From an uncultured virus (IMG/VR IMGVR_UViG_3300025913_000028) (lineage: Duplodnaviria; Heunggongvirae; Uroviricota; Caudoviricetes): a stretch of DNA of 20,000 bases. The position numbers and the translations under genes were made by a program. Shown here piece by piece: positions 2,634 to 16,047 of this stretch (the first letter of the stretch is position 1; each line of letters opens with the position of its first letter). The notes beneath the pieces were generated by a model that ran no database searches, was not told where the DNA came from, and saw only the letters and a list, made by a program, of their open reading frames with translations. Location: the IMG/VR virus record IMGVR_UViG_3300025913_000028; one strand, 5' to 3'.

Positions 2634-3026
2634 ATGAACACGTTCCAGCTCCACGATGGCCGCACGGTGCGCGTCATCGGCAACAACATCCTGGTCGAGC
2701 GGGTCAAGCTCCCCGAGACCTACAAGAACACCAAGATCATCATCGACCGTCAGAAGGAGGACGCCACCGCGATCGGCATCATCCGGGCGGTGGGTACGCT
2801 CGCAGTCGTGAAGCCTGGCGATGGTCCCCAGCGCATGCCCCTCTTCGGTCTGGAGCCGGGGATGAAGTGCGCCTTCCTCTGGTTCTACGCGGAGCGGCAC
2901 ACGAACCTCCAGATCCAGGAGCGGCTCGGCCAGAGCCTCATCGTCCTGAAGTGGGAGGACATCTCCTTCGTCTGGCCGGGCAACGAAGAGCACGACGTCT
3001 CGGGCATCTGCTCGATGGGCGCCTGA
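2634..3026 (+). CDS. groES: GroES/Cpn10-like co-chaperonin
   Basis: Aligns by eye to GroES: VRVIGNNILVER (cf. IRPLHDRVIVKR), mobile loop KIIID, GIIRAVG (cf. GEVLAVG), LEPGMKCAF (cf. VKVGDIVIF), IVLKWEDI (cf. LIMSESDI). Confidence 0.72.
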   Translation: MNTFQLHDGRTVRVIGNNILVERVKLPETYKNTKIIIDRQKEDATAIGIIRAVGTLAVVKPGDGPQRMPLFGLEPGMKCAFLWFYAERHTNLQIQERLGQSLIVLKWEDISFVWPGNEEHDVSGICSMGA

Positions 3027-4294: not shown

Positions 4295-5056
4295 GTGAGC
4301 AAGAGCATCCATCGCAAGTACACCTGGCGCCCCGACGTCCCCGATCACCGGGATCAGTACTTCATCGACGGCGCGGTCGCACTGCCCCCGGCGGTCGACC
4401 TCCGCAGCGAGTGCCCGCCGGTCTACGACCAGGGACAGCTCGGAAGCTGCACCGGCAACGCGATCGCGGCGGCCCTCGCGTTCGCCGACCACAAGGAGCA
4501 CCTCGGGCTCTTCTTCACACCGTCGCGGCTCTTCATCTACTACAACGAGCGCAGCATGGAGGGCACGGTCGCCTCCGACGCTGGCGCTCAGATCCGGGAC
4601 GGCATCAAGAGCGTCGTGAAGCTCGGGGCGTGCGCGGAGACGACGTGGCCGTACCGCATCACGAAGTTCAAGCTGAAGCCCACGGCGAAGGCGTACAAGG
4701 AAGCCGCCCTCCATCAGGCGCTCTCATACAAGCGCATCGTCAGCACCAGCCTCAGCGCGATGAAGAGCTGCCTCGCGGCGGGCTTCCCGTTCGTCTTCGG
4801 CTTCTCCGTCTACGAGAGCTTCGAGAGCGCCGAGGTCGCCAAGACCGGCGTGCTCAACCTTCCGGCGGTCGGCGAGCAGATGCTGGGCGGTCATGCCGTC
4901 CTGTGTGTCGGCTACGACGACAGCACCGAGCGCTTCATCGTCCGCAACTCGTGGGGCTCGGCGTGGGGCCAGGCCGGCTACTTCACGATCCCGTACGGGT
5001 ATCTCACCAACCCGAACCTCGCGGACGACTTCTGGACCGTCCGCACCGTGGAGTGA
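4295..5056 (+). CDS. Papain-like cysteine peptidase, family C1A (xylellain-like)
   Basis: WRPDVPDHRD N-terminus, LPPAVDLR, DQGQLGSCTGN (oxyanion Gln, catalytic Cys 4448-4450), GGHAV (His 4892-4894), RNSWG..WG..GYF; SD AAGGAGG. Confidence 0.95.
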   Translation: MSKSIHRKYTWRPDVPDHRDQYFIDGAVALPPAVDLRSECPPVYDQGQLGSCTGNAIAAALAFADHKEHLGLFFTPSRLFIYYNERSMEGTVASDAGAQIRDGIKSVVKLGACAETTWPYRITKFKLKPTAKAYKEAALHQALSYKRIVSTSLSAMKSCLAAGFPFVFGFSVYESFESAEVAKTGVLNLPAVGEQMLGGHAVLCVGYDDSTERFIVRNSWGSAWGQAGYFTIPYGYLTNPNLADDFWTVRTVE

Positions 5057-5295: not shown

Positions 5296-5992
5296 CAAGC
5301 CGACGGCACATCACACGCACAGCGTCTTCAAGCTTCCCAGCGAGGAGGTGGTGTGGCGTCCGCCCACCGACGAGATCGGCCAGGACGGCTACCCGCGGAT
5401 CTTCCCGTGGAGGACGTGCAGCTACTGCGGGAGTATCCATCCGGAGGATCTCGTCGAGCTCGCGAAGACGATCCCGTTCTGCGACACCTTCGAGTCGTAC
5501 GAGTTCAAGACCGGCAAGCCCCACATGGAGCTCGCCGACATGAAGTACGGCTTCCCGCACAAGATCTACGTCGACACGCAGATCACGCTCAAGCCCGACG
5601 TGGAGTTCAAGCACGGGTCGCGCACCGAGAACGGGGTTCAGATCCCGCTCATGGGCAAGGGCTACAAGCCCTTCATCAAGTTCTACACCGTTCACACGAA
5701 CGATGAAGGGATCGACGACGAAGCTTTCGCCGCGATCGCGAAGGTGATGCACGACCACGCCGGCGTCATCCTCGAACGAGACGACAAGGGCGTGAAGTGG
5801 AGAGGCAGGCCCCGCATGATGAAGAAGAACGCCGACAACACCCCGACCTTCAGCCCCGGCGAGCGCGTGAAGGTCGCTGGCCAGGAAGGCAAGGTCACGG
5901 GCACCGCCGAGGACGGCCGCGTCCAGATCACCTTCGACGACAGCAACGTCCCGGCGCAGGTGATCGAGCCCGACAAGGTCGAGCGGACGTGA
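5282..5992 (+). CDS. Hypothetical protein with CxxC/His motif and C-terminal KOW/SH3-like domain
   Basis: RTCSYCGSIHP, KYGFPHKIYVD, KFYTVH; C-terminal FSPGERVKV..QEGKVTG...GRVQITFDD. Confidence 0.75.
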   Translation: MKWADKPTAHHTHSVFKLPSEEVVWRPPTDEIGQDGYPRIFPWRTCSYCGSIHPEDLVELAKTIPFCDTFESYEFKTGKPHMELADMKYGFPHKIYVDTQITLKPDVEFKHGSRTENGVQIPLMGKGYKPFIKFYTVHTNDEGIDDEAFAAIAKVMHDHAGVILERDDKGVKWRGRPRMMKKNADNTPTFSPGERVKVAGQEGKVTGTAEDGRVQITFDDSNVPAQVIEPDKVERT

Positions 5993-6554: not shown

Positions 6555-8372
6555 ATGCCGGCACAGTTCCGCATCGACCAGGTCACCCCCGGCGCAGGGG
6601 TAGCGGGACGCTCGCGCCACGATCTCATCCCCGGCGAGATCATCACGCTCAACGCGACGAGTCCGGCTCCGGGAGCTGGTGTCACGTACACGTGGGAGAT
6701 CATCGACAAGCGCGGCTCCTCCGCAGTGCTGTCGAGCAGCACCGGGCAGACGGTCACGATCGGCATCGCTGGGCTGATCGTGCGCCCGAGCTCGTTCTTG
6801 ATCGAGCTCACCGTCAACGACAACGGCGTCATCACGAAGTCTCGTCGCATCGCCTCGGTGCGCACGTTGAACGCTCAACTTCGTGTTCCGGTCTACGTCG
6901 AGACCGCTCCGGAGGCGAACAAGCTCAGCGTCCACGATGCTGACCTCGCCACCGACAACGCTCTCTACCCGAACCGCTCAGGCCTCGGCGTCTCCGAGCA
7001 GAACTGGGCGGGCTGGTCGGAGTGGGCGTGGGAGATCGTGCAGGCTGTCGAGAGCTCGATCGGCTCCTCGGGCCCTCCATCCGGTCCGGCTGGTGGTGAC
7101 CTCGCCCTGACGTACCCGAACCCGCGGGTCGCCAAGCTCTACGGCATCGCGATCGACCCTTCAGCGGCGTCGCCGGCGACGGGCTCAGTGCTGAAGTACG
7201 ACGGCACCAACTACAAGCCCGTCCAGGTCAGCGGCAAGAAGTACAACAAGGTCGTGGTGGGCTGCTCGGGTCAAGGAGACACGGCTGCTGACTGCGACTT
7301 CCTCGACAACGGGAACTGCCTCGGCATCGTCGCCGCACTCGCTTCTCTCGGTGGCCAGGGTGGTGACGTTTTCGTTCGCCCAGGCAACTACACGTTGAAC
7401 GCAAGTGACAGTGCTTCCACGCCGCTCGTCATCAACAATGCCCGCCTGATCTTCGCCAGTAAGGCAAGCTGCACCCTCACTGCCCGGATGACCCCGGGGG
7501 TCGGCCAGTCGATGTCGATCTTCAACATCCAGGGCGGGTCCGTCGAGAACCTCACGATCTTCATCGACGCCCCAGGCTCCATGAACGGAGGCTCTGAAAC
7601 CACGTTCGTCGATGTGAGCAGCGTCAGCCGGATCAAGAACATCGACATCTACATGGGGACGATCCTGACCGGAGCTTCGGTGAACTTCGGCAACATCCAC
7701 AGCGTCGTTCAGTTCGCGGGAGGGGCGATTCTCGAAGACGTCGTGATCTACGGGCCGCCCAGCTTCATCACTTCGGGTAGCGGCGTCCTCACCTGCTTCT
7801 ACGGAACAGGAACTTCGGGATTCGACCCGTTCTACGTCATCCGCTGCCGTACCAGCACCTTCGACATCACGCGCGGAGGAGACATCGGCTTCTCTTCCGA
7901 CTACGGCCCGGGCTACTTCGTGGAGTGTGCACCGACGGATGCACTGGAGACGGGCTTCCTCCTCTACCGACAGGCGCAGGGAGTGCAGATCATCTCTCCG
8001 ACGGTGGTGTGGACGGCCACTGATGCCTTCGGTCGAGCTGCCTTCTCTTTCGGCGATGGTGACCCTTCCGACCGAGTCATCGATTGCAGCGTGCGGGGTG
8101 GCTACGTCGACGGGATGTCCTCGCTCGGCACGGGGGCAGTGCTCTTCGCCACCGATTCCGGGGGCAACCTGAATCGGAACAAGATCCACGGGCTGAGCAT
8201 CAGGAACTTCTCGAAGGCAGTGCTAGTTGCGAGCGGTGGGTTGGGCACCATCGACTCGAACGACATCCAGTTCTGCACCTTCAAGGGTGTCACTACCCCC
8301 TTCGACACAGACGGTACGGATACCAACACCGTGTTCGACAACAACATCAACGACACGGGTGGTGGAGCATGA
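6555..8372 (+). CDS. Putative tail fibre/tailspike: Ig/PKD-like N-terminus, fibre linker, C-terminal right-handed beta-helix (pectin lyase-like)
   Basis: ITLNATS..TYTWEII..GQTVTI (PKD-like); GPAGGDLALTYPNPRV and GSVLKYDGTNYKP linkers typical of phage fibres; AALASL..GGDVFVRPGNYTL beta-helix cap; VENLTI/IKNIDI/LEDVVI coils. Confidence 0.7.
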   Translation: MPAQFRIDQVTPGAGVAGRSRHDLIPGEIITLNATSPAPGAGVTYTWEIIDKRGSSAVLSSSTGQTVTIGIAGLIVRPSSFLIELTVNDNGVITKSRRIASVRTLNAQLRVPVYVETAPEANKLSVHDADLATDNALYPNRSGLGVSEQNWAGWSEWAWEIVQAVESSIGSSGPPSGPAGGDLALTYPNPRVAKLYGIAIDPSAASPATGSVLKYDGTNYKPVQVSGKKYNKVVVGCSGQGDTAADCDFLDNGNCLGIVAALASLGGQGGDVFVRPGNYTLNASDSASTPLVINNARLIFASKASCTLTARMTPGVGQSMSIFNIQGGSVENLTIFIDAPGSMNGGSETTFVDVSSVSRIKNIDIYMGTILTGASVNFGNIHSVVQFAGGAILEDVVIYGPPSFITSGSGVLTCFYGTGTSGFDPFYVIRCRTSTFDITRGGDIGFSSDYGPGYFVECAPTDALETGFLLYRQAQGVQIISPTVVWTATDAFGRAAFSFGDGDPSDRVIDCSVRGGYVDGMSSLGTGAVLFATDSGGNLNRNKIHGLSIRNFSKAVLVASGGLGTIDSNDIQFCTFKGVTTPFDTDGTDTNTVFDNNINDTGGGA

Positions 8373-8965
8373 CGGCCAAGTCCCTCCCGGCCCAGCAGAA
8401 CCGCTTCTGGCCGCCCTCCACCACGGACTACGGTACGGCTGCGGCTGAACCACTTCTGCGACAGGGCGACATCTACTACAACACGACGAGCTTGCTCTAC
8501 CGCAAGTGCGACAGCGCGACGTACCCGGCGACGTGGTCGGATGTCGGCACCGCAGCGAAGGGCACCTTCGTCGGGGCGCTGAATCAGGACATCTCGCTCA
8601 TCAACGTCGAGGTCGTCATCGGAGGCTTCATCTTCGACGGCAGTACGAAGCAGACGAGCGTCTTCCACATGTTCGGCCGCTTCAGTCCTGCGACCTCGGG
8701 CGATGCTCGTGTTCGCCTCTACGACACAGGGCCCGTGGGTGGAGCCGCCATCACGCCGGTCCTTCGGTCGACGCTCTCCATCAACTTCTCGGCGGGCTCG
8801 AACATCCTCGACCGTCAGCAGGGTCTCACCAAGACGGCGTCTCCGGGTGTCAACACCAACACCATCTTCAACACCGCTCGGGTATACGAGCTCCGTGCTA
8901 TTTTGGATGCCGCCACCCTCGGTGATCTCGTCAAGATCCACTGGGCAGGCATCGAGGTGAGCTGA
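8369..8965 (+). CDS. Putative virion structural protein (198 aa)
   Basis: ATGA overlap; QGDIYYNTTSLLYRKC...TWSDV resembles fibre segment motifs; beta-rich C-terminal domain. Confidence 0.6.
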   Translation: MTAKSLPAQQNRFWPPSTTDYGTAAAEPLLRQGDIYYNTTSLLYRKCDSATYPATWSDVGTAAKGTFVGALNQDISLINVEVVIGGFIFDGSTKQTSVFHMFGRFSPATSGDARVRLYDTGPVGGAAITPVLRSTLSINFSAGSNILDRQQGLTKTASPGVNTNTIFNTARVYELRAILDAATLGDLVKIHWAGIEVS

Positions 8966-9957
8966 TGACGGTCTCGACACATTCGCTCGTGAATCAGGTG
9001 GCGGCCACCATGGGCGTGTCTTGGTACACCCTCGTCACCGCGCTTCTCTCCGTGGGCTGGACGCAGCAGGGCTCAGGGGACGGCACAACGTTCTCGAACA
9101 GCGCGGCTGGGCCTGTGGTTTCCGGTGGCACGGGTACCGGAGGACTCGACGGCACGAACCGCTGGGTGCGTCTACGTGACCCGAGCGGGAACCGCGAGAT
9201 CATCATCAAGCGCGAGAGCTCGGCGTCAGTCTGGAGCCTCTACTACAGCTACTCGGCTCGCTTCACGGGTGGCTCTCCAGGAGCCTCCGCTCGTCCGACG
9301 GCAACGGATGAGGTCACCATCATCAGCTCGGGCAACTTCAACACCAGCGCGTTGATCTACACGCATGCCGTCGTCGAAGACACCGCCATCAACGGTGTGT
9401 GGGGCTTCTGGCTCATCCGGACCATCCAGAGCACGAGCACTCGCGCTGACTTCATCTGCTGCGATCCGCTCTCTTCACGAACCGACGAGAGCCGCTACGC
9501 GAGCTTGGGGAGTGTGATCGACCCGTGCGTCTGGCATGCCTTCCAGGGCACGGCTTCTCCCGCGGGGTCGAGCTCTTCGCTCTCGGTCACGATGCAGCTT
9601 CTCTACTCGCCCACCCTGAGCACTCGCACGCTCATCCCCATCATCTGCGCTCGGTTCGGGACCAACAACGGCTCCGGCAACACGATCAGCGATGCGAGCG
9701 GCATCAGCGCCGGAGGTATGGGGGCGAACGACTACGACGGTGGTGACGACATCATCGCTGTGAGGTACATGCGCTTCCTGAATCAGGGCAGCGGCAACCC
9801 GGGGCTCTTCTTCGGGCTCTCGCATCACCTGTCCGAGAAGACGATCATCGCTCGTAACTACCCGGACGTCGTGCAGCACCCGTCGAGCGACCTCGCATGG
9901 GTCTACTACAACGGTTTCGCCATCCCGTGGCCCAAGGGCACGACGCCGAGCCCGTGA
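8965..9957 (+). CDS. Gly/Ser/Thr-rich putative virion (tail-associated) protein, paralog A
   Basis: TGATG coupling; shares ordered motifs with 9968-11017; low charge, beta-rich. Confidence 0.65.
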   Translation: MTVSTHSLVNQVAATMGVSWYTLVTALLSVGWTQQGSGDGTTFSNSAAGPVVSGGTGTGGLDGTNRWVRLRDPSGNREIIIKRESSASVWSLYYSYSARFTGGSPGASARPTATDEVTIISSGNFNTSALIYTHAVVEDTAINGVWGFWLIRTIQSTSTRADFICCDPLSSRTDESRYASLGSVIDPCVWHAFQGTASPAGSSSSLSVTMQLLYSPTLSTRTLIPIICARFGTNNGSGNTISDASGISAGGMGANDYDGGDDIIAVRYMRFLNQGSGNPGLFFGLSHHLSEKTIIARNYPDVVQHPSSDLAWVYYNGFAIPWPKGTTPSP

Positions 9958-9967
9958 GGAGGACGAA

Positions 9968-11017
9968 GTGGCGAAGATCACGACACGCTCCATCGACAGT
10001 GCGAGCTCCATCAACTTTCCGAACCCGCAGCCTTCGGGCTCCGGTGTCGTCGAGTTCCTGTGGAACATCATCCAGACGCTTCTCACCGCGGGCTGGACTC
10101 ACTTCGCCTCGGGAACAGGTACCGGCGGAACGTTCTCTACGACGCCTGGCAACGTGAACAACCAGATCACGGGGACGGGAACGGGCACAGGAGGTTTCGA
10201 TCGGAACAACGCATGGATCGTTCTGCGCTGTCCGGCGAACAAGCGGCAGATCCTCATCCAGCGCGGCACGAGCAACACGCAGTGGCGTATCTACTACTCC
10301 GCCCTCGATACGTTCATCGGCACTGGGTTCGGTGCGATCAGCGCGACCGTGCCTCCCAGTGCCACTGATCAGGGTCAGGTTCTCGGCGCTGCGAACGCGT
10401 TCACCAGCGTCACCAACCCGTCCACCACTTCGGGTACGCGTTTCCACTGTCTCGCATACTCCGATGCCGCGAACACGGACTGCTACACGTTCTACGCATG
10501 GGCCACGGGCCCATCGAACTCTTCGATCTCTATGGTCGTCATGTTCGAGACCCTCCGCTCGTTCAACGCCCTCGATGCCGACCCCATCATCATGACCTGG
10601 TTCCCGGCCAGTGGTGGTCCGCTGAGCGCAACCTCTCTCTTCAACAGCACGACCTGGTTCGGCTGGTACAAGATGAACCTCACGTCGGAGAGCTTCGACG
10701 AGTGGGTGTTGGTGGCGCAAGGAACGAACTCCTCTTCGACGTACGTTCCGGCTTCGGGCTTGAACACGCTGACGGGGGTAGGGCCGGATCCCAACGATCT
10801 GGCAGAGCCAAGCATCGAGCTCGCGTGGGTTCGTCCCGCATCGAGCTATGCCGCTCGCCAGGGAACGAAGGGGACCTCTCTTCGACTTCGGGGAAGTGGC
10901 GTCGCCTTCCGCTCGTGGCCGGCTCGTCACGACCCGACGAACGCCACGGAGGCCCGTGTCTTCGTCGATTGCCTCTTGGTCCCCTGGCTCGCCAACACCC
11001 TTCCCAGCCTCGGGTGA
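9968..11017 (+). CDS. Gly/Ser/Thr-rich putative virion (tail-associated) protein, paralog B
   Basis: SD GAGGAGG before GTG; GWT..SG.G, GTGTGG, W..LR.P, W..YYS, P.ATD, PW motifs shared with paralog A. Confidence 0.65.
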   Translation: MAKITTRSIDSASSINFPNPQPSGSGVVEFLWNIIQTLLTAGWTHFASGTGTGGTFSTTPGNVNNQITGTGTGTGGFDRNNAWIVLRCPANKRQILIQRGTSNTQWRIYYSALDTFIGTGFGAISATVPPSATDQGQVLGAANAFTSVTNPSTTSGTRFHCLAYSDAANTDCYTFYAWATGPSNSSISMVVMFETLRSFNALDADPIIMTWFPASGGPLSATSLFNSTTWFGWYKMNLTSESFDEWVLVAQGTNSSSTYVPASGLNTLTGVGPDPNDLAEPSIELAWVRPASSYAARQGTKGTSLRLRGSGVAFRSWPARHDPTNATEARVFVDCLLVPWLANTLPSLG

Positions 11018-11020
11018 GCC

Positions 11021-11305
11021 ATGGCTCTGACGACGCTTTCAGTTCGGTGGGCCCCGCTGGAGTTCTGGACGCTTCGCGCGAACCAAGAGCCGGCCTTCTC
11101 GTTGTCGGTAAGGTGGGCTCCTCGCGAGTTCTGGAGGAACCCTTCCGTCTTCGCTGTGGAGAATCGCGTCTACGACTCCGTGGCCACCAAGTTGGTGTCG
11201 TGGACCACGCTCTATCCCGACACCACAGGCAAGAGCTACCCTGGGCCCGGTGTAGCTCTTGTGACGACGTCGGACTACTGCATCTCCAAGATCTTCCGGT
11301 CGTGA
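11021..11305 (+). CDS. Small hypothetical protein with a duplicated LSVRWAPxEFW motif
   Basis: Repeat conserved in amino acids but with synonymous codon changes; fills the gap between neighbours. Confidence 0.7.
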   Translation: MALTTLSVRWAPLEFWTLRANQEPAFSLSVRWAPREFWRNPSVFAVENRVYDSVATKLVSWTTLYPDTTGKSYPGPGVALVTTSDYCISKIFRS

Positions 11306-11309
11306 GGCT

Positions 11310-12773
11310 GTGATGAACGAAGTACTCGCCCATGCCCTGCTTCACCAGGTGCCGATCGCGATCGGTGTCTGGGATGCCGAAGGCGCAACCTCCCCGCAAG
11401 ATATGAAGTTGGTCTTCATGAACGAGTGGGGCGTCAAGAGCATCGTCTCGGGATACGGCATGGCTCGCGAGCACGTGGAAGGGAAGACCTTCCGCGAGAT
11501 CACGGCCGAGCAGGGCAAGGAGCCGAACGCCGACTTCGTTCAGACGCTCTACGAGACCGCTCAGTCACAGAACCCGAAGCAGGTGGAGCTCGGGACGATC
11601 TTCGGAAGGACGTACCGCATGTACTTTCTGCCGATGGGGACTCGCGTCGCTGCGTCGATGTTCGAGGACATCACGGAGGTCCACGACACCAACCGCCGCC
11701 TCTCGCTGGCGTTGGAATCTGCCAAGGCTGGGATGTGGTGGTTCGACTACGTCATGAACATGCAGAGCTGGGACGCTGGCGTCGGACAGATGCTCGACCT
11801 CGGAGCTGCATCCACGTCTCTGGGAACGTCGCTCGACCTCTTCTACTCGAAGATCTCACCGGCGGACGTAACGGACGTTCGTGCGCTCATGGAACGTGCC
11901 CTCGCGAACCCGGAGGTCTCCAACGTCGAGTTGGAGTTCTCGCTGGTGAAGCCGGATGGCCGTGTGGTGGCCGTGATCGATCGAGCACAGATCTATCGCG
12001 AGGGTGGGAAGCTCGTGCAGATGATGCACGTCCTCATCGACATCGACGACAAGGTCCAGCTCACCAAGAAGCTTCAGCAGTCGAACTCCGACTTGAAGAA
12101 CTTCGCCCACGTCGCTTCGCACGACCTGCGCGAGCCCCTGCGAGTCATCAGCAACTACACGCAGCTCCTCTTCGAGGAGTACGGGCACCTCTTCGAGAAC
12201 GTTCCGGAGGCCCAGCAGTATCGAGGCTTCATCGAGACAGCCTCGAAGAGGGCGATGGACCTCGTCGACGACCTTCTTCGGTTCAGCCGGGCCGGCAACA
12301 ACATGAACCCGCAGGAGAACGTGTCGCTGGAGCGGCTCGTTCAGATCGCGAAGGAGAACCTTCGCGTCTCGATCAACGAGTCGAAGGCGGAGATCACGAC
12401 GGAGAACCTTCCCTCGGTGACATGCGATGCCGGCATGATGGTGCAGGTCTTCCAGAACCTGCTCAGCAACGCCGTGAAGTTCACCCCTAAGGGTGACAGT
12501 GAGGCGCCTCCGCACATCCGTGTGACGGCGAGCGACGCGGGTCGCATGTGGTTGATCAAGGTTACAGACCGAGGACTCGGGATCGAGCCCGCCTTCCTCA
12601 CGAAGATCTTCACTCCCTTCTACCGCCTCTACACGACGGCGGAGTATGATGGGACCGGCATCGGGCTCTCGCTGTGCCAGAGAATCGTCCGAGCTCACGG
12701 CGGTGACATCTGGGCGGAATCGGGAGGCAAGGGCCACGGAACGACCCTTTCTTTTACCCTCCCCAAGGCATGA
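11310..12773 (+). CDS. Soluble PAS-domain sensor histidine kinase (HisKA + HATPase_c; Cph1/COG4251-type kinase core)
   Basis: H-box FAHVASHDLREPLRVI (His 12120-12122), N-box QVFQNLLSNAVKF, G1 DRGLGI, F IFTPFYRL, G2 GTGIGLSLC; PAS-like segments ending FEDITE and LIDIDD; no TM helix. Confidence 0.95.
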   Translation: MMNEVLAHALLHQVPIAIGVWDAEGATSPQDMKLVFMNEWGVKSIVSGYGMAREHVEGKTFREITAEQGKEPNADFVQTLYETAQSQNPKQVELGTIFGRTYRMYFLPMGTRVAASMFEDITEVHDTNRRLSLALESAKAGMWWFDYVMNMQSWDAGVGQMLDLGAASTSLGTSLDLFYSKISPADVTDVRALMERALANPEVSNVELEFSLVKPDGRVVAVIDRAQIYREGGKLVQMMHVLIDIDDKVQLTKKLQQSNSDLKNFAHVASHDLREPLRVISNYTQLLFEEYGHLFENVPEAQQYRGFIETASKRAMDLVDDLLRFSRAGNNMNPQENVSLERLVQIAKENLRVSINESKAEITTENLPSVTCDAGMMVQVFQNLLSNAVKFTPKGDSEAPPHIRVTASDAGRMWLIKVTDRGLGIEPAFLTKIFTPFYRLYTTAEYDGTGIGLSLCQRIVRAHGGDIWAESGGKGHGTTLSFTLPKA

Positions 12774-13177
12774 CCGTGCAGCACCGCGTTCTACTGGTCG
12801 AGGACAACGCTCCCGACGTCGTCCTCGCCAGGAAGGCGTTCTCGGCGCTCGATCGCGTAGAGATGCGTGTAGCGGTGACAGCCGACGAAGCCAGCAAGAT
12901 GCTGGAGCACGAGCTCGTCGACCTCATCTTGCTCGACTTGAACTTGCCGAAGATCAGCGGCTTCGAGCTCCTCGCGAAGTTGAAGGTCGAGGAGCTCACG
13001 AAGTCGATCCCCGTGGTCGTCATCACGAGCTCGTCGTCACTCGATGACATCGAACGAGCGTATCGAGCTGGAGCTTCGGGTTACCTCATCAAGCCGATGT
13101 CGCTCACGACTTTTCGGGACATGGTAGCTATCCTGGGCGCGTACTGGTTCCAGGTCTCGAAGCTACCGGCGAGGTGA
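12770..13177 (+). CDS. Single-domain response regulator, Rcp1-like
   Basis: LLVEDN, LILLDLNLPKISG (Asp 12935-12937), PVVVITSS, DIERAY..GA.GYLIKP, C-terminal YWF..SKLP typical of the Rcp1 family; ATGA overlap with kinase. Confidence 0.95.
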   Translation: MTVQHRVLLVEDNAPDVVLARKAFSALDRVEMRVAVTADEASKMLEHELVDLILLDLNLPKISGFELLAKLKVEELTKSIPVVVITSSSSLDDIERAYRAGASGYLIKPMSLTTFRDMVAILGAYWFQVSKLPAR

Positions 13178-13179
13178 AC

Positions 13180-13995
13180 ATGGCCATCCCCATCCACGTG
13201 CTTCTCGTCGAGGACAGTGCTCCCGACGCCGCCTTCATCGAGTCGAGGCTCCTTCAGGCCACGTTGCTGCGGGTCGGAGTCGAGGTTGCGACCTGGCTGA
13301 AGACGGCCACCATGCTCCTGTCGAACAAGAAGTTCGACGTCGTGCTGCTCGATCTCGGACTTCCGGACAGCCAGGGCATCGACACCCTCGTCGAGGTGTT
13401 GAAGGTGTCGCCGAACGTTCCGGTCATCGTGCTCTCGGGCCGCGAGGACATGGAGACGGCGATTCTGGCAGTTCGTGCCGGAGCTCAGAGCTACCTCGTG
13501 AAGAAGCCGGGCCTGACCCCCGAGCAGCTCGAACGCGAGATCTTCTACGCCCGAGAGCGGAAGATCAACGACCTCACCGCCAAGAAGCTCACGCGAGCCT
13601 CCATGGCGAGTCTTCGGACCATCGAAGAGCGCCCCGGACGGTCTTCGACACCGCCGCCGGTCGACACGGGGATCCTGTCTCGGCACATCTCGACGATCGA
13701 GGAGGCGATCGCGAAGGTGCGGCTGCATCTCATGAAGAACGCTCCATCGCAGGCGGAGGCGGTTCAGGACATCCTCACGAACGACGGGGCGTACATCGCG
13801 TTGCGGGAGATCCGCAGCTACCTCCAGCTCGACGACGAGTCTCCGCCCCGAACGAAACCGATTTCGGAGGCGGCGCTGAAGGCGGTACGGGAGGCTTCGG
13901 TTCCTCCGGGCATGCCGATGCCCACGAACCTCTCGGAAGCTCGCGCCGCGGTGCTAGACATGATCAGCGAGGAGGAGGCCGACCGTGTCGGGTGA
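13180..13995 (+). CDS. Response regulator: N-terminal receiver plus unrecognised ~145-aa C-terminal domain
   Basis: LLVEDS, VVLLDLGLPDSQG (Asp 13351-13353), PVIVLSG, GAQSYLVK; SD GAGGTG; alternative GTG start at 13174. Confidence 0.9.
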   Translation: MAIPIHVLLVEDSAPDAAFIESRLLQATLLRVGVEVATWLKTATMLLSNKKFDVVLLDLGLPDSQGIDTLVEVLKVSPNVPVIVLSGREDMETAILAVRAGAQSYLVKKPGLTPEQLEREIFYARERKINDLTAKKLTRASMASLRTIEERPGRSSTPPPVDTGILSRHISTIEEAIAKVRLHLMKNAPSQAEAVQDILTNDGAYIALREIRSYLQLDDESPPRTKPISEAALKAVREASVPPGMPMPTNLSEARAAVLDMISEEEADRVG

Positions 13996-14395
13996 AGACT
14001 TCATCACCAAGCTTCGTGAACTGGAGCAGCGGGTGCGCCGCGGCTTCTCGGGCTTCAACTTCATGCTCACTGGGCTGACGACCCGCGTCGAGCACGTCGA
14101 GAGCTCGCAGAAGGATTTCACCAAGAAGGCCGACGACATCGAGAAGGACGTCAGTGCGATCGCTGTTCGTCTCGCCAAGCTCGAAGGGCACCAGGAGGGT
14201 GTTCGGGATGGACGAGAGGACACGGCACGCACGCTCGCCGAGGTCAAAGAGGTGCGTACGCAGCACCACGAGGAGAAGAAGATCGGCCTGGAGTGGTGGA
14301 AGACCACCGCCCCGATCATCATCGCGGTCGTCACGGGCATTTTCGGACTGATCACTGGCATCGTGGCCCTGCTTCAGTCCATCCTTGGGCACTGA
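13985..14395 (+). CDS. Coiled-coil protein with C-terminal TM helix (possible holin/XhlA-like phage membrane protein)
   Basis: SD GAGGAGGAGG; heptad-like N-terminal region; WWKTTAPIIIAVVTGIFGLITGIVALL TM; function inferred from architecture only. Confidence 0.6.
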   Translation: MSGEDFITKLRELEQRVRRGFSGFNFMLTGLTTRVEHVESSQKDFTKKADDIEKDVSAIAVRLAKLEGHQEGVRDGREDTARTLAEVKEVRTQHHEEKKIGLEWWKTTAPIIIAVVTGIFGLITGIVALLQSILGH

Positions 14396-16047
14396 TGACC
14401 GCCGATCCGAACATGAAGTGCGTGTGTGGGTACCGGAAGTTCCGGGACCAACGAATCACGCTCATCGAGCCGGCGACGCAGTGGGTGCTCTTCGACAACG
14501 GCGCCTACGGTGGTTTCGGGTCGACGCCGTACGGCACCTACTTCGGTTCGGGAGCTTCCGGCACCTGGGGGCAGTTCGAGGTCGATGTTGCACGGACCCA
14601 CAAGCAGATCGTCTGCGAGAGCTGTTCGAGGGTGCGAAGCGACGTCGTCCTGAGCGGCATCGGCTTCTTCGGCAGCTACGTCCTCGGTGACAGCATCTTC
14701 GTGTTGGTGACCGACACGACACTGCTGGGGTGCGTCCGCATCCGCTTCGAGAACGCTACCTTGGGGATTCGTGTGGACGTCAGCCCCACGATCTACAGTG
14801 GCGACCCCCTTCCTCTCGCAGCTCCGACCCCGGACGTCACCGCGGAGAGCCCGGGAACTCCCGTGGCCGGGATCCTGCGAGCTCTCCTGCCCGATGTGGA
14901 CTACGACGGCACCTTCGTGGTCTCCTTGGTCGACGTGTGCTCGGGGACGTCCTCCCCGCTCGCCAACATCCTCTTGGAGTCCGCCGTGCAGATTCACTAC
15001 CCCCACGAAGCAGATCTCAACGGCCTTCCTCCGATCGTCGTCGAGGAGAACCTGCGCGCTGCGAACCCGGTCTCGCAGCCCGGCACGAGCGCGATCTCCA
15101 CGATCCCGTTCGACAAGTGCGACGTCGTCATCGAGTACGACGCTCGCTTCGGGCAGTTGCCTCTGGCGGCGGGGTTCACGGGGTTCGGAAGCGGAGGTGT
15201 GTACACGCTGATCGACGGTGGCGTCCTCTCCATCACCACCACGGTCGCTGATGCATTCCTGAAGGAAGTCACGCTCGGCTCTGCCTTCACCGAGATCCAC
15301 CTGTATGCGCAGGTCCGTACCGATTCTTCCTCGGTGGTCTCGGATGAGAAGGGGTTCGGTCTGCTTGCAGATGGTGCTCCTGGGGCATCCGCGAACTACC
15401 ACGGCATAAAGATGCGCTCTCGTGCGGGGCTGCTCAACATGCAGACTCTCACCGGAAGCACACTTCACGACGTCACTTCTCCACCGCCTTCGGCGTGGGT
15501 GACCTTCTACGCGGGCCTCAAGATCGGGGCCTCGGAGGGTGTGCTTGCTATCCCGATCCTGACGGGCCCTGTTGCTCCGTCGAACTGGGGTTCTGGAGAA
15601 CCTGGCGGAGCGAGCCCGACGTTCCGCATGGCCTTCGGAGATTTCGAGGGCTCGACGCTTCAGTCGTACCTGCGCAACATCGTCGCGAGCATCGGCGGGC
15701 GGTTCGTGCGGGCGTTCTTCCGCAGCTACGCGTCTGCTGCCGCCCCCGTGCTTCGTCTCTCGTTCTCGGGCGACGCTGATGCTGGCCCGGGCACGACCGT
15801 TCGTTTCCGTGTCCGCTACGGTTCCCTGGGCCCGGGCACGAACCCGTACAACTTGGGGTCGGCGACGATCGTCGAGGCGACAGCGAACTTCTCCGCGAAG
15901 AACGTCATCGTCGAGGTTCCCTTCCAGCTCAGTGGGCTGGTTGCGAACGCCCCCTTCTGGTTCTCGGTGGAGCGGGCTTGGGAGAACATCAACGACACGA
16001 TGCCTGGTACGGCGCATCTGATCGCTGCTACCGTCCGCTCGTCATGA
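14395..16047 (+). CDS. Large beta-rich putative virion structural protein (550 aa) with N-terminal CxC...CxxC
   Basis: TGATG coupling; KCVCG...VCESC flanking the Gly/aromatic segment GAYGGFGSTPYGTYFGSG; remainder beta-strand rich. Confidence 0.6.
   Translation: MTADPNMKCVCGYRKFRDQRITLIEPATQWVLFDNGAYGGFGSTPYGTYFGSGASGTWGQFEVDVARTHKQIVCESCSRVRSDVVLSGIGFFGSYVLGDSIFVLVTDTTLLGCVRIRFENATLGIRVDVSPTIYSGDPLPLAAPTPDVTAESPGTPVAGILRALLPDVDYDGTFVVSLVDVCSGTSSPLANILLESAVQIHYPHEADLNGLPPIVVEENLRAANPVSQPGTSAISTIPFDKCDVVIEYDARFGQLPLAAGFTGFGSGGVYTLIDGGVLSITTTVADAFLKEVTLGSAFTEIHLYAQVRTDSSSVVSDEKGFGLLADGAPGASANYHGIKMRSRAGLLNMQTLTGSTLHDVTSPPPSAWVTFYAGLKIGASEGVLAIPILTGPVAPSNWGSGEPGGASPTFRMAFGDFEGSTLQSYLRNIVASIGGRFVRAFFRSYASAAAPVLRLSFSGDADAGPGTTVRFRVRYGSLGPGTNPYNLGSATIVEATANFSAKNVIVEVPFQLSGLVANAPFWFSVERAWENINDTMPGTAHLIAATVRSS

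Follow-up and report, generated by a model that had tools for sequence, protein, structure and literature searches.

A kinase, two receivers and a coupled membrane protein form a selected signaling module of large tailed phages

We analyzed a 20,000-nucleotide stretch, here called the window, of an uncultured virus (IMG/VR record IMGVR_UViG_3300025913_000028), in which positions 11,310–14,395 encode a histidine kinase, two receiver proteins (REC1 and REC2) and a small coiled-coil protein with a single transmembrane (TM) helix. This four-gene cassette is almost certainly a real phage module maintained by selection, and its coupled genes travel together between phage lineages. Judged from its sequence features, it appears to be a phage-restricted two-component variant with new output parts, for which we propose a function below. 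The four genes are as follows.

11310–12773, + strand: histidine kinase, 487 aa, PAS-HisKA-HATPase_c
12770–13177, + strand: REC1, single-domain receiver of the Rcp1/bacteriophytochrome-regulator type, 135 aa
13180–13995 (ATG start; in-frame GTG at 13174), + strand: REC2, receiver with helical tail, 271/273 aa
13985–14395, + strand: coiled-coil/TM protein, 136 aa, one C-terminal transmembrane helix

The cassette lies on a large lytic-type phage genome

The window corresponds to C1:52395-72394 (minus strand) of G000, a single record of 195,355 bp (62.5% GC) in which no terminal repeat was found; G, C and L identifiers denote the genomes, contigs and loci compared. Gene calling gave 247 genes. 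Pfam was run on 177 of the 215 non-window genes (those of at least 100 aa) and on 28 window genes, while PHROG was run on 89 selected genes. The original prediction had proposed classifying the contig by its terminase and major capsid genes, and both are present (TerL phrog_675, E = 1e-48; phrog_2522, E = 1e-8), together with tail sheath and baseplate genes, DNA polymerase A, primase and helicases. No ribosomal protein was detected among the genes scanned with Pfam. With a terminase, a major capsid protein, tail genes and no cellular core seen, the record is a tailed virus (Caudoviricetes), and G000 is a myovirus-like, lytic-type phage. By terminase it has no close cultured relative, the best match being 26%.

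All four open reading frames (ORFs) are co-directional, with junctions consisting of 4–11-nt overlaps or 2–4-nt gaps, as originally noted, and the start of the next gene, encoding 550 aa, falls within the TM-gene stop codon at 14395. The kinase and receiver genes are the only ones of their kind in G000. Their composition matches the phage, with cassette GC contents of 0.59–0.65 and third-position GC (GC3) values of 0.81–0.84 against a genome median of 0.84. In line with the earlier reading, a consensus scan found no terminator on the + strand between positions 5500 and 17000, although the scan is weak, returning two terminators overall against a shuffle mean of 5.8. Placement in a structural operon did not hold up well: with the cassette at C1:58.0-61.1 kb, the recognizable morphogenesis genes are 30 to 110 kb away, those for head, sheath and terminase at C1:146-171 kb and one for the baseplate at C1:27-28 kb. 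The term phosphorelay was likewise too strong, since no HPt step was found and the arrangement is one kinase with two receivers.

The kinase and both receivers retain their catalytic residues

The kinase is soluble and combines two N-terminal PAS-like domains (PAS_3 at residues 154–239, above cutoff, and PAS_7 at 61–127, weak with E = 0.0019) with a Cph1/bacteriophytochrome-type core matching HisKA and HATPase_c in Pfam, in which H271 lies in the motif SHDLREP. H271, N387, D420/G422/G424, F434/F437 and G448/G450/G452 are invariant in all six aligned kinases, so that the H, N, G1, F and G2 boxes are intact, as had been claimed, and the protein is a class I HisKA histidine kinase. Its best Protein Data Bank (PDB) match is 8f71 (E = 1e-40), followed by bacteriophytochromes. 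The sensor part varies among loci, being PAS-PAS in the window, L014 and L020, a single PAS in L018 and absent in L016, L017 and L019. Five proteins share 55–87% identity with the kinase; the next relatives, from diverse bacteria and haloarchaea, do not exceed 47%. In a tree, the window kinase stood apart from the other cassette kinases with weak support (87/83 and 95/65) and four long-branch rows; from our trees we draw nothing on donors or repeated insertion. A phytochrome (Cph1/BphP) identity was considered and rejected because Pfam found neither GAF nor PHY domains, only PAS in the ~250 residues ahead of HisKA, and the PAS-GAF-PHY photosensory module is thus not present.

Both receivers match Pfam Response_reg, and alignment confirmed the reported acidic pair, phospho-Asp, Thr/Ser and Lys (E11-D12, D56, T86 and K108 in REC1; E11-D12, D58, S86 and K108 in REC2). 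REC1, with best PDB matches to 6xvu (DrRR), RcpA 1k68, RcpB 1k66 and Rcp1 1jlk, is an Rcp1-type single-domain receiver, whose phospho-Asp and Lys-Pro are retained in ten of ten loci. REC2 consists of a receiver (residues 1–127), an extended helix to ~147 and an unclassified helical hairpin domain at ~160–270. The AlphaFold model shows a receiver with a long α5 helix, then a flexible linker and a helical hairpin (pLDDT 87) that has additional short helices. Full-length relatives are 29–74% identical, several on contigs of 164–196 kb. Searching 1.84 billion proteins with a tail profile gave 54 cluster representatives, 49 of which have 234–318 aa and a domain start at 121–148, right after a receiver-length N terminus; the others comprise three short pieces and two large, unrelated-looking repeat proteins. 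Among 58 family sequences, D58 is kept in 57 and K108 in all; the tail carries conserved NAP and REIR motifs and no invariant catalytic residue, and it looks like a binding surface. The REC2 tree has two supported groups, with L020 outside that of the window, L014 and L158.

Attempts to relate the tail to known folds were uninformative. It has no Pfam match and specifically none to Hpt or HisKA. Foldseek returned nothing at E = 0.001 or better, the VIA fold search aligned it to generic hairpins (best Z 6.5, rmsd 2.2, 57 residues aligned), the ESM Atlas gave no usable feature match (TM score at most 0.42), and searches with full-length REC2 were swamped by the receiver domain. Such blanks prove neither novelty nor absence. 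We found nothing in favor of a degenerate HisKA_3/DHp or HPt domain, whether in profiles, in the fold search or in the conservation of H169, retained in 39 of 58 sequences. Complex prediction for REC2 with the soluble part of the TM protein scored 0.02 and 0.01 (mark 0.32), which speaks neither way.

The arrangement recurs in diverse phages under purifying selection

We read the DNA context of nine members with a REC2 tail (the window, L014, L016-L020, L158 and L189), and all nine share the order kinase, REC1, REC2 and coiled-coil/TM gene. The synteny that the original prediction suggested looking for in other viruses therefore exists in several lineages. Using a TM profile built from the window, L014, L016-L020 and eight database proteins, independent matches were obtained only in L158 (80 bits) and L189 (48 bits). 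Across ten of ten loci, the TM-gene start overlaps the REC2 stop by 4–11 nt, which makes the proposed coupling of the membrane gene to the kinase and receiver genes real.

Genomic neighborhoods differ between phages. Four loci (the window, L014, L020 and L158) share one layout, a long co-directional run with the cassette in the same slot, while in L018 it comes after head genes with an SU10-type capsid. The cassettes of L016, L017, L189 and the Microcoleus phage My-WqHQDG form stand-alone islands on the strand opposite both flanking genes, and the envisaged co-expression with late structural genes is thus not general.

Compared with L014, the ratio of nonsynonymous to synonymous substitution rates (dN/dS) is 0.12 for the kinase, 0.12 for REC1, 0.09 for REC2 (0.11 for its tail) and 0.15 for the TM gene. 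Six neighboring genes span 0.03–0.22, with the flanking 605- and 550-aa genes at 0.19–0.22, above the cassette. Between the L016 and L017 cassettes, values are 0.22–0.44. The dN/dS comparison, also suggested beforehand, indicates purifying selection (0.09–0.15) and contradicts an isolated, recent and drifting insertion.

For cellular relatives, 185,579 GTDB genomes were searched with a motif that catches 22 of the 58 family sequences, giving 30 matching loci. The tail domain and whole cassette occur in one of them, L189; none of the 29 non-phage loci has the tail family. The L189 contig (G001:C445; 183 kb) carries capsid, portal, prohead protease, sheath, baseplate and tape-measure genes and is a myovirus-like phage binned into a Phycisphaerae genome; a terminase query and phrog_2 showed no terminase on this contig or in G002. 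A metagenome scan, of which the best 79 loci from at least 602 stretches were taken, contained no family member and was used only as a cell-like control: 0/79 loci had a REC2 tail or TM gene, and in many (for example, L075, L087, L090 and L118) a kinase and REC1 precede a REC-hybrid kinase. As far as these scans can tell, given their limited sensitivity, the front end is of cellular type and the output parts are seen only on phages. Simple capture of a common chromosomal cassette, as first suggested, is not supported: the cellular output of the third gene is swapped for a tail that, wherever context was readable, lies on phage contigs, and the nearest cellular kinases reach at most 47% identity.

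The cassette slot always encodes a coiled-coil membrane protein

Two features frame the cassette in the window.

6555–11305, + strand: upstream variable block, genes of 605, 198, 330, 349 and 94 aa; context, outside the module
14395–16047, + strand: gene of 550 aa downstream, kept throughout the phage clade; marks where the slot ends on the right

The clade set comprised eight records that are at least 90% complete or the window's own. The cassette occupies the same slot in four (G000, G006, G010 and G011), while the other four lack any receiver (G007, G008, G009 and G012, with G008 and G012 alike at the locus; the G009 slot was read across both ends of its linear record). All three distinct cassette-less lineages instead have, before the 550-aa ortholog, a 111–168-aa coiled-coil protein with an N-terminal membrane helix, together with a 57–86-aa ORF. 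Two of these substitutes are clearly homologous (E = 1e-10 to 1e-17) and the third weakly so, and none has a counterpart in G000. Every version of the slot therefore encodes a coiled-coil membrane protein with a single pass, whether or not the signaling front end is there, and the swap may represent functional replacement.

The genes at 6555–11017 and 14395–16047 have no significant match in Pfam, PHROG or NCBIfam (the 6555 gene has one below-cutoff Pfam match, E = 0.006), and the tail-fiber-like flanks described originally stay leads only, no tail-fiber family being matched in the three databases. The upstream block probably encodes virion or receptor-binding proteins: it is swapped in L014, L020 and L158, as receptor-binding regions often are, the L014 substitute shows a weak End_tail_spike match (E = 1.5e-4), and a homolog of the 605-aa gene adjoins the baseplate wedge gene in the L189 phage. 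Orthologs of the 550-aa protein are 35–77% identical, with or without the cassette, and ESM Atlas leads (score 0.83) point to Laminin_G_3 and viral clusters. The ortholog in L211 (G009) has only 196 aa and keeps the N-terminal Cys-containing part.

Lone phage receivers often adjoin membrane proteins

Two viral scans (33 and 23 loci) also yielded receivers outside the REC2 family. Repeats were collapsed by hand to 27 groups, from which six were removed by eye as cell-type, with DNA-binding or catalytic outputs (L021, L029-L031, L032, L036, L041 and L066). Among the remaining 21 groups, the receiver abuts or is fused to a small membrane protein in 15 and lies two genes away from one in three, with none in the last three (TM ORFs for L057 and L061 came from the plain ORF list, the gene caller having missed or shortened them). 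As background, 110 of the 759 genes of these loci encode small TM proteins, as do 16 of the 247 in G000. An endolysin-family gene occurs within three genes in 4 of 17 scanned groups (L023, L046, L047 and L057). Fusions of a receiver to a membrane helix were seen in L060, L035 and L045. In L060:9818-12304, one chain combines a receiver with a coiled coil and a C-terminal membrane helix, and genes for a membrane-anchored kinase and another receiver come next, which makes the locus a compact form of the cassette plan; phrog_2990 is matched both by the C-terminal part of the L060 fusion and by the TM family of the cassette.

Several further receivers were recorded in passing. L027, L033, L038, L040 and L042 (at ~9300–11100), from a group of related phages, each have a lone receiver of 150–184 aa one or two genes after a small protein with an N-terminal TM helix, at what we take to be the lysis-to-packaging junction of Mu-like phages. 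Lone receivers of 167–170 aa without a membrane neighbor are encoded at L022:9974-10486 and L025:9980-10483, on contigs of 350 and 106 kb. At L212:2501-2821 (Pseudomonas phage Komp_PAO1_1), a + strand receiver-like match lies under a coding sequence annotated on the minus strand; the annotated strand may be wrong.

The membrane protein has a holin-like build

The TM protein has an N-terminal coiled coil of ~105 aa, one C-terminal transmembrane helix (from a hydropathy scan and kept in alignments) and a very short tail. Its gene is one of only two small genes with a C-terminal TM helix among the 247 called in G000. Being small and having at least one transmembrane helix, as holins do, the protein appears holin-like in architecture. 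It matches phrog_5225 (E = 4.5e-7), hemolysin phrog_1193 (E = 0.005) and, weakly, holin phrog_689 (E = 0.0017); the last also matches seven of eight orthologs scanned, at E = 6e-7 (P0127) to 0.03. Hemolysin PHROGs likewise recur as weak matches across the TM family. Of the holin-like gene in the original prediction, the architecture and weak PHROG matches stand and holin identity is not confirmed, no Pfam or NCBIfam holin model being matched.

Elsewhere in G000, a 309-aa protein (C1:125743-126672; L007:2747-3673, minus strand) has a homolog in L016 and no match in Pfam, PHROG or NCBIfam. It contains a motif reminiscent of lysozyme-like endolysins.

A proposed switch and its alternatives

Our tentative proposal is that the cassette is a phage-owned, branched two-component switch with a membrane-protein output, most likely a regulator of lysis timing. 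That the output runs through the membrane protein is the better-founded part and seems probable; lysis timing as the purpose is favored only hesitantly. By analogy with two-component biochemistry, the soluble kinase would autophosphorylate on H271 and pass phosphate to both REC1 and REC2. REC1, which lacks an output, would probably act as a sink that sets a threshold or delay, as DtcB does in Detocs, and the sensor-less orthologs suggest that the input may be a timer or binding partner rather than a ligand sensor. Because REC2 has no DNA-binding or catalytic domain, phospho-D58 probably repositions the helical hairpin through the long α5 helix, and this shift could alter how REC2 binds the cytoplasmic, coiled-coil part of the membrane protein with which it is co-translated. 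In the least certain step, the membrane protein would be a holin-like factor or lysis regulator, with the switch setting the time at which the inner membrane is breached. A wider idea, more speculative than this proposal, is that His-Asp phosphorylation provides a widespread, undescribed form of lysis control, in which membrane permeabilization is gated by a receiver that binds, or is fused to, a coiled-coil membrane protein with a single pass; in small phages, host kinases or acetyl-phosphate might charge a lone receiver, and large phages such as this one would have added a kinase and a sink receiver of their own as a self-contained timer or sensor.

We favor lysis control because of the slot swap, the receiver–membrane fusions, the lysis neighborhoods of lone receivers and the holin-like build. 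Several results weigh against it. A separate trio of membrane genes (C1:14764-16093; L001, minus strand), 42 kb from the cassette, encodes holin-like, inner-spanin-like and outer-spanin-like proteins (inner spanin, phrog_1327, E = 9e-4; the holin call comes from hydrophobicity and position, and no endolysin adjoins), which makes the cassette TM protein unlikely to be the only holin. The gene is not encoded beside an endolysin: none was found among the window proteins (28 by Pfam, 25 by PHROG), although a divergent one could be missed, nor among the seven genes after the TM gene in L019. In four of the ten loci, the cassette stands alone among genes that are not structural and is not linked to any late or lysis operon. 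The trio, the missing endolysin and the islands together weaken the lysis reading. Curated Pfam and NCBIfam holin models give no match, a coiled coil combined with a helix could by itself account for the PHROG matches of the TM family, and when the family profile was compared with those of the L060 and L035 fusions, the probability reached no more than 17% and 8%, respectively. The slot substitutes have only weak spanin and bacteriocin-related PHROG matches, which do not establish holin identity. The association of lone receivers with membrane genes (Fisher p = 1e-8 for 15/21; 5e-6 for 11/17 without the four fusions) is a hand tally inflated by related loci, and two cultured phages with receiver matches (a PhoP-type and an unannotated case) show no lysis context.

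The kinase and receivers might instead cross-talk with host Cph1/Rcp1-type circuits, draining or supplying phosphate so as to change motility, cyclic di-GMP or development, with the TM protein only anchoring REC2 at the membrane or a cell pole, an explanation we regard as unlikely. Cell-like contigs share the kinase–REC1–REC2 front end wired to hybrid kinases and would thus offer compatible host partners, the sensor-less kinases of L016, L017 and L019 would suit a constitutive source or sink, and the stand-alone islands fit as well. A pure sink, however, would require a single receiver, not four genes whose order is preserved at ~30% identity; the tail domain and the TM gene are additions peculiar to phages, and the slot swap with another membrane protein suggests that this protein is the key part. 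We give a slightly lower chance to a defense against competing phages, in which the kinase would sense superinfection, REC1 would buffer and phospho-REC2 would make the TM protein depolarize the cell or block DNA entry. The cassette is patchy in the clade (4/8 records), moves between lineages and has variable sensors, features typical of conflict systems. The defense system Detocs has the same three-part layout and, in the accessible part of its preprint (bioRxiv 10.1101/2023.01.24.525353), membrane-spanning effector variants. Against this, neither a TPR sensor nor an effector of the PNP, nuclease or hydrolase type was found by Pfam, the kinase and TM protein have no PADLOC match and the receivers match PDC-M60B/C only over their first 63 residues. 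Moreover, such systems are usually common in cells, unlike the tail family, which is missing from all 29 non-phage GTDB loci and the best 79 metagenome loci.

An assembly checkpoint, the second option of the original prediction, in which the module would be expressed together with tail genes and link the assembly of virions to the membrane or the state of the host, appears quite improbable. The cassette does fill one slot of a long co-directional run in the window, L014, L020 and L158 and follows head genes in L018, but complete relatives make do without it for the same virion region; in L016, L017, L189 and My-WqHQDG it has no link to structural genes, and its flanks match no tail-fiber family. 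It is scarcely credible that a recently captured host cassette is drifting without function or that the assembly is chimeric: absence from half of the related records would fit, whereas the low dN/dS (0.09–0.15), the phage-typical codon use, the lack of any cellular kinase above 47% identity and the recurrence of the arrangement in L014, an independent complete genome, and in distant phages argue otherwise. Taken together, four intact, chained genes are confirmed from the original observation, and the tail-fiber flanks, structural operon and holin identity are not; from its interpretation, the phage contig, the conservation and the membrane-gene coupling are supported, a link to lysis indirectly so, and simple chromosomal capture and general late-gene coupling are not.

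Other features of the window and genome

Within the window, the gene at 867–1916 matches phrog_6247 'DNA topoisomerase', and that at 1968–2621 encodes an N-terminal membrane helix joined to a matrixin-like protease with an HExxH motif (Pfam M10, E = 0.02); L154 and the L189 contig have homologs of it, and L017 has a look-alike. A GroES-like protein (2634–3026; E = 0.001) and a papain-family cysteine protease (4295–5056; E = 2e-16) follow. In the remainder of G000, a fused β–β′ RNA polymerase is encoded by one 2,065-aa gene (C1:175833-182030; L010:4837-11031, minus strand). The mReC phages also encode β and β′ subunits, according to the available portion of PMC7481178, a likeness to G000 in gene content. 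A full gyrase B gene lies at C1:166770-168719, gyrase A being unmatched among the scanned genes. ARAGORN found a tmRNA gene (C1:129513-129899) and a tRNA with the amber-reading anticodon CUA (C1:43675-43747); under table 11, the genes have normal ends. Close to the head genes, an 839-aa gene (C1:153761-156280) has a ferritin-like domain, and elsewhere a 722-aa gene (C1:139892-142060) has an inorganic-pyrophosphatase-like domain. On the L189 contig, the thymidylate synthase and portal genes hold HNH-like inserts, possibly inteins.

Relation to known systems

No description of a phage kinase/two-receiver/membrane-protein module was found in the open-access literature, the scope of our survey, which did not extend to subscription papers and supplements. 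The metagenome-derived My-WqHQDG (OR578706) has the same four parts in this order and an 8-nt REC2/TM overlap; its REC2, however, has 171 aa without the tail domain, and its TM protein is not detectably homologous. The main text of its preprint, considered apart from the supplements (Table S4), does not mention the kinase/regulator cassette.

Cph1-Rcp1 and bacteriophytochrome pairs (1jlk, 1i3c, 1k68, 1k66, 6xvu and 8f71) have the same type of kinase core and REC1, but the cassette lacks the GAF/PHY photosensor and sits on phage genomes. With the chromosomal kinase/Rcp1-like/REC-hybrid operon it shares the kinase, REC1 and REC2 gene order, differing in the helical tail that replaces a catalytic output in the third gene and in the coupled membrane gene. 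From what is accessible of its description (bioRxiv 10.1101/2023.01.24.525353), Detocs (DtcA/DtcB/DtcC) similarly combines a kinase, a stand-alone receiver and a receiver-effector in one operon without a transcription factor, whereas the cassette has no TPRs, no PNP, nuclease or hydrolase effector and a separate membrane gene, and is virus-encoded. No Detocs-named match was obtained with PADLOC 2.0.0, a library in which the presence of Detocs models is not established.

Precedent for delaying lysis through holin regulation comes from T4 and N4, where the consulted sections of PMC12642591 describe direct protein contacts and no kinase; the N4 'Receiver domain' is there the authors' label for a pinholin stretch, with no CheY-like fold claimed, unlike the cassette receivers. 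Single-pass holins and lysis regulators (phrog_689 holin, XhlA-like 'hemolysin' PHROGs) are, like the TM protein, small and have a potentially regulable soluble domain. If a membrane-protein output does gate lysis, the cassette would constitute a phosphorylation-controlled lysis decision and a new answer to burst timing in large lytic phages; as a defense or host-rewiring device, it would still be a new phage signaling system with a new receiver-output domain.

Phage-borne histidine kinases are also known from phiCDHM1, in which agrBDC includes the kinase agrC without a regulator (PMC3901668, in the part consulted), and from Stenotrophomonas phage Bhz63, with an annotated 239-aa PhoP-like regulator beside the kinase (GenBank). 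On the material available, neither has two output-less receivers or a membrane partner. A jumbo-phage survey (PMC7824862) reports, in its accessible sections, only a divergent cREC domain that was never found with kinases. As far as these sources extend, phage kinases have so far lacked a regulator or been thought to feed host pathways; here, a complete signaling circuit with otherwise unseen output parts is under purifying selection and moves between unrelated large phages.

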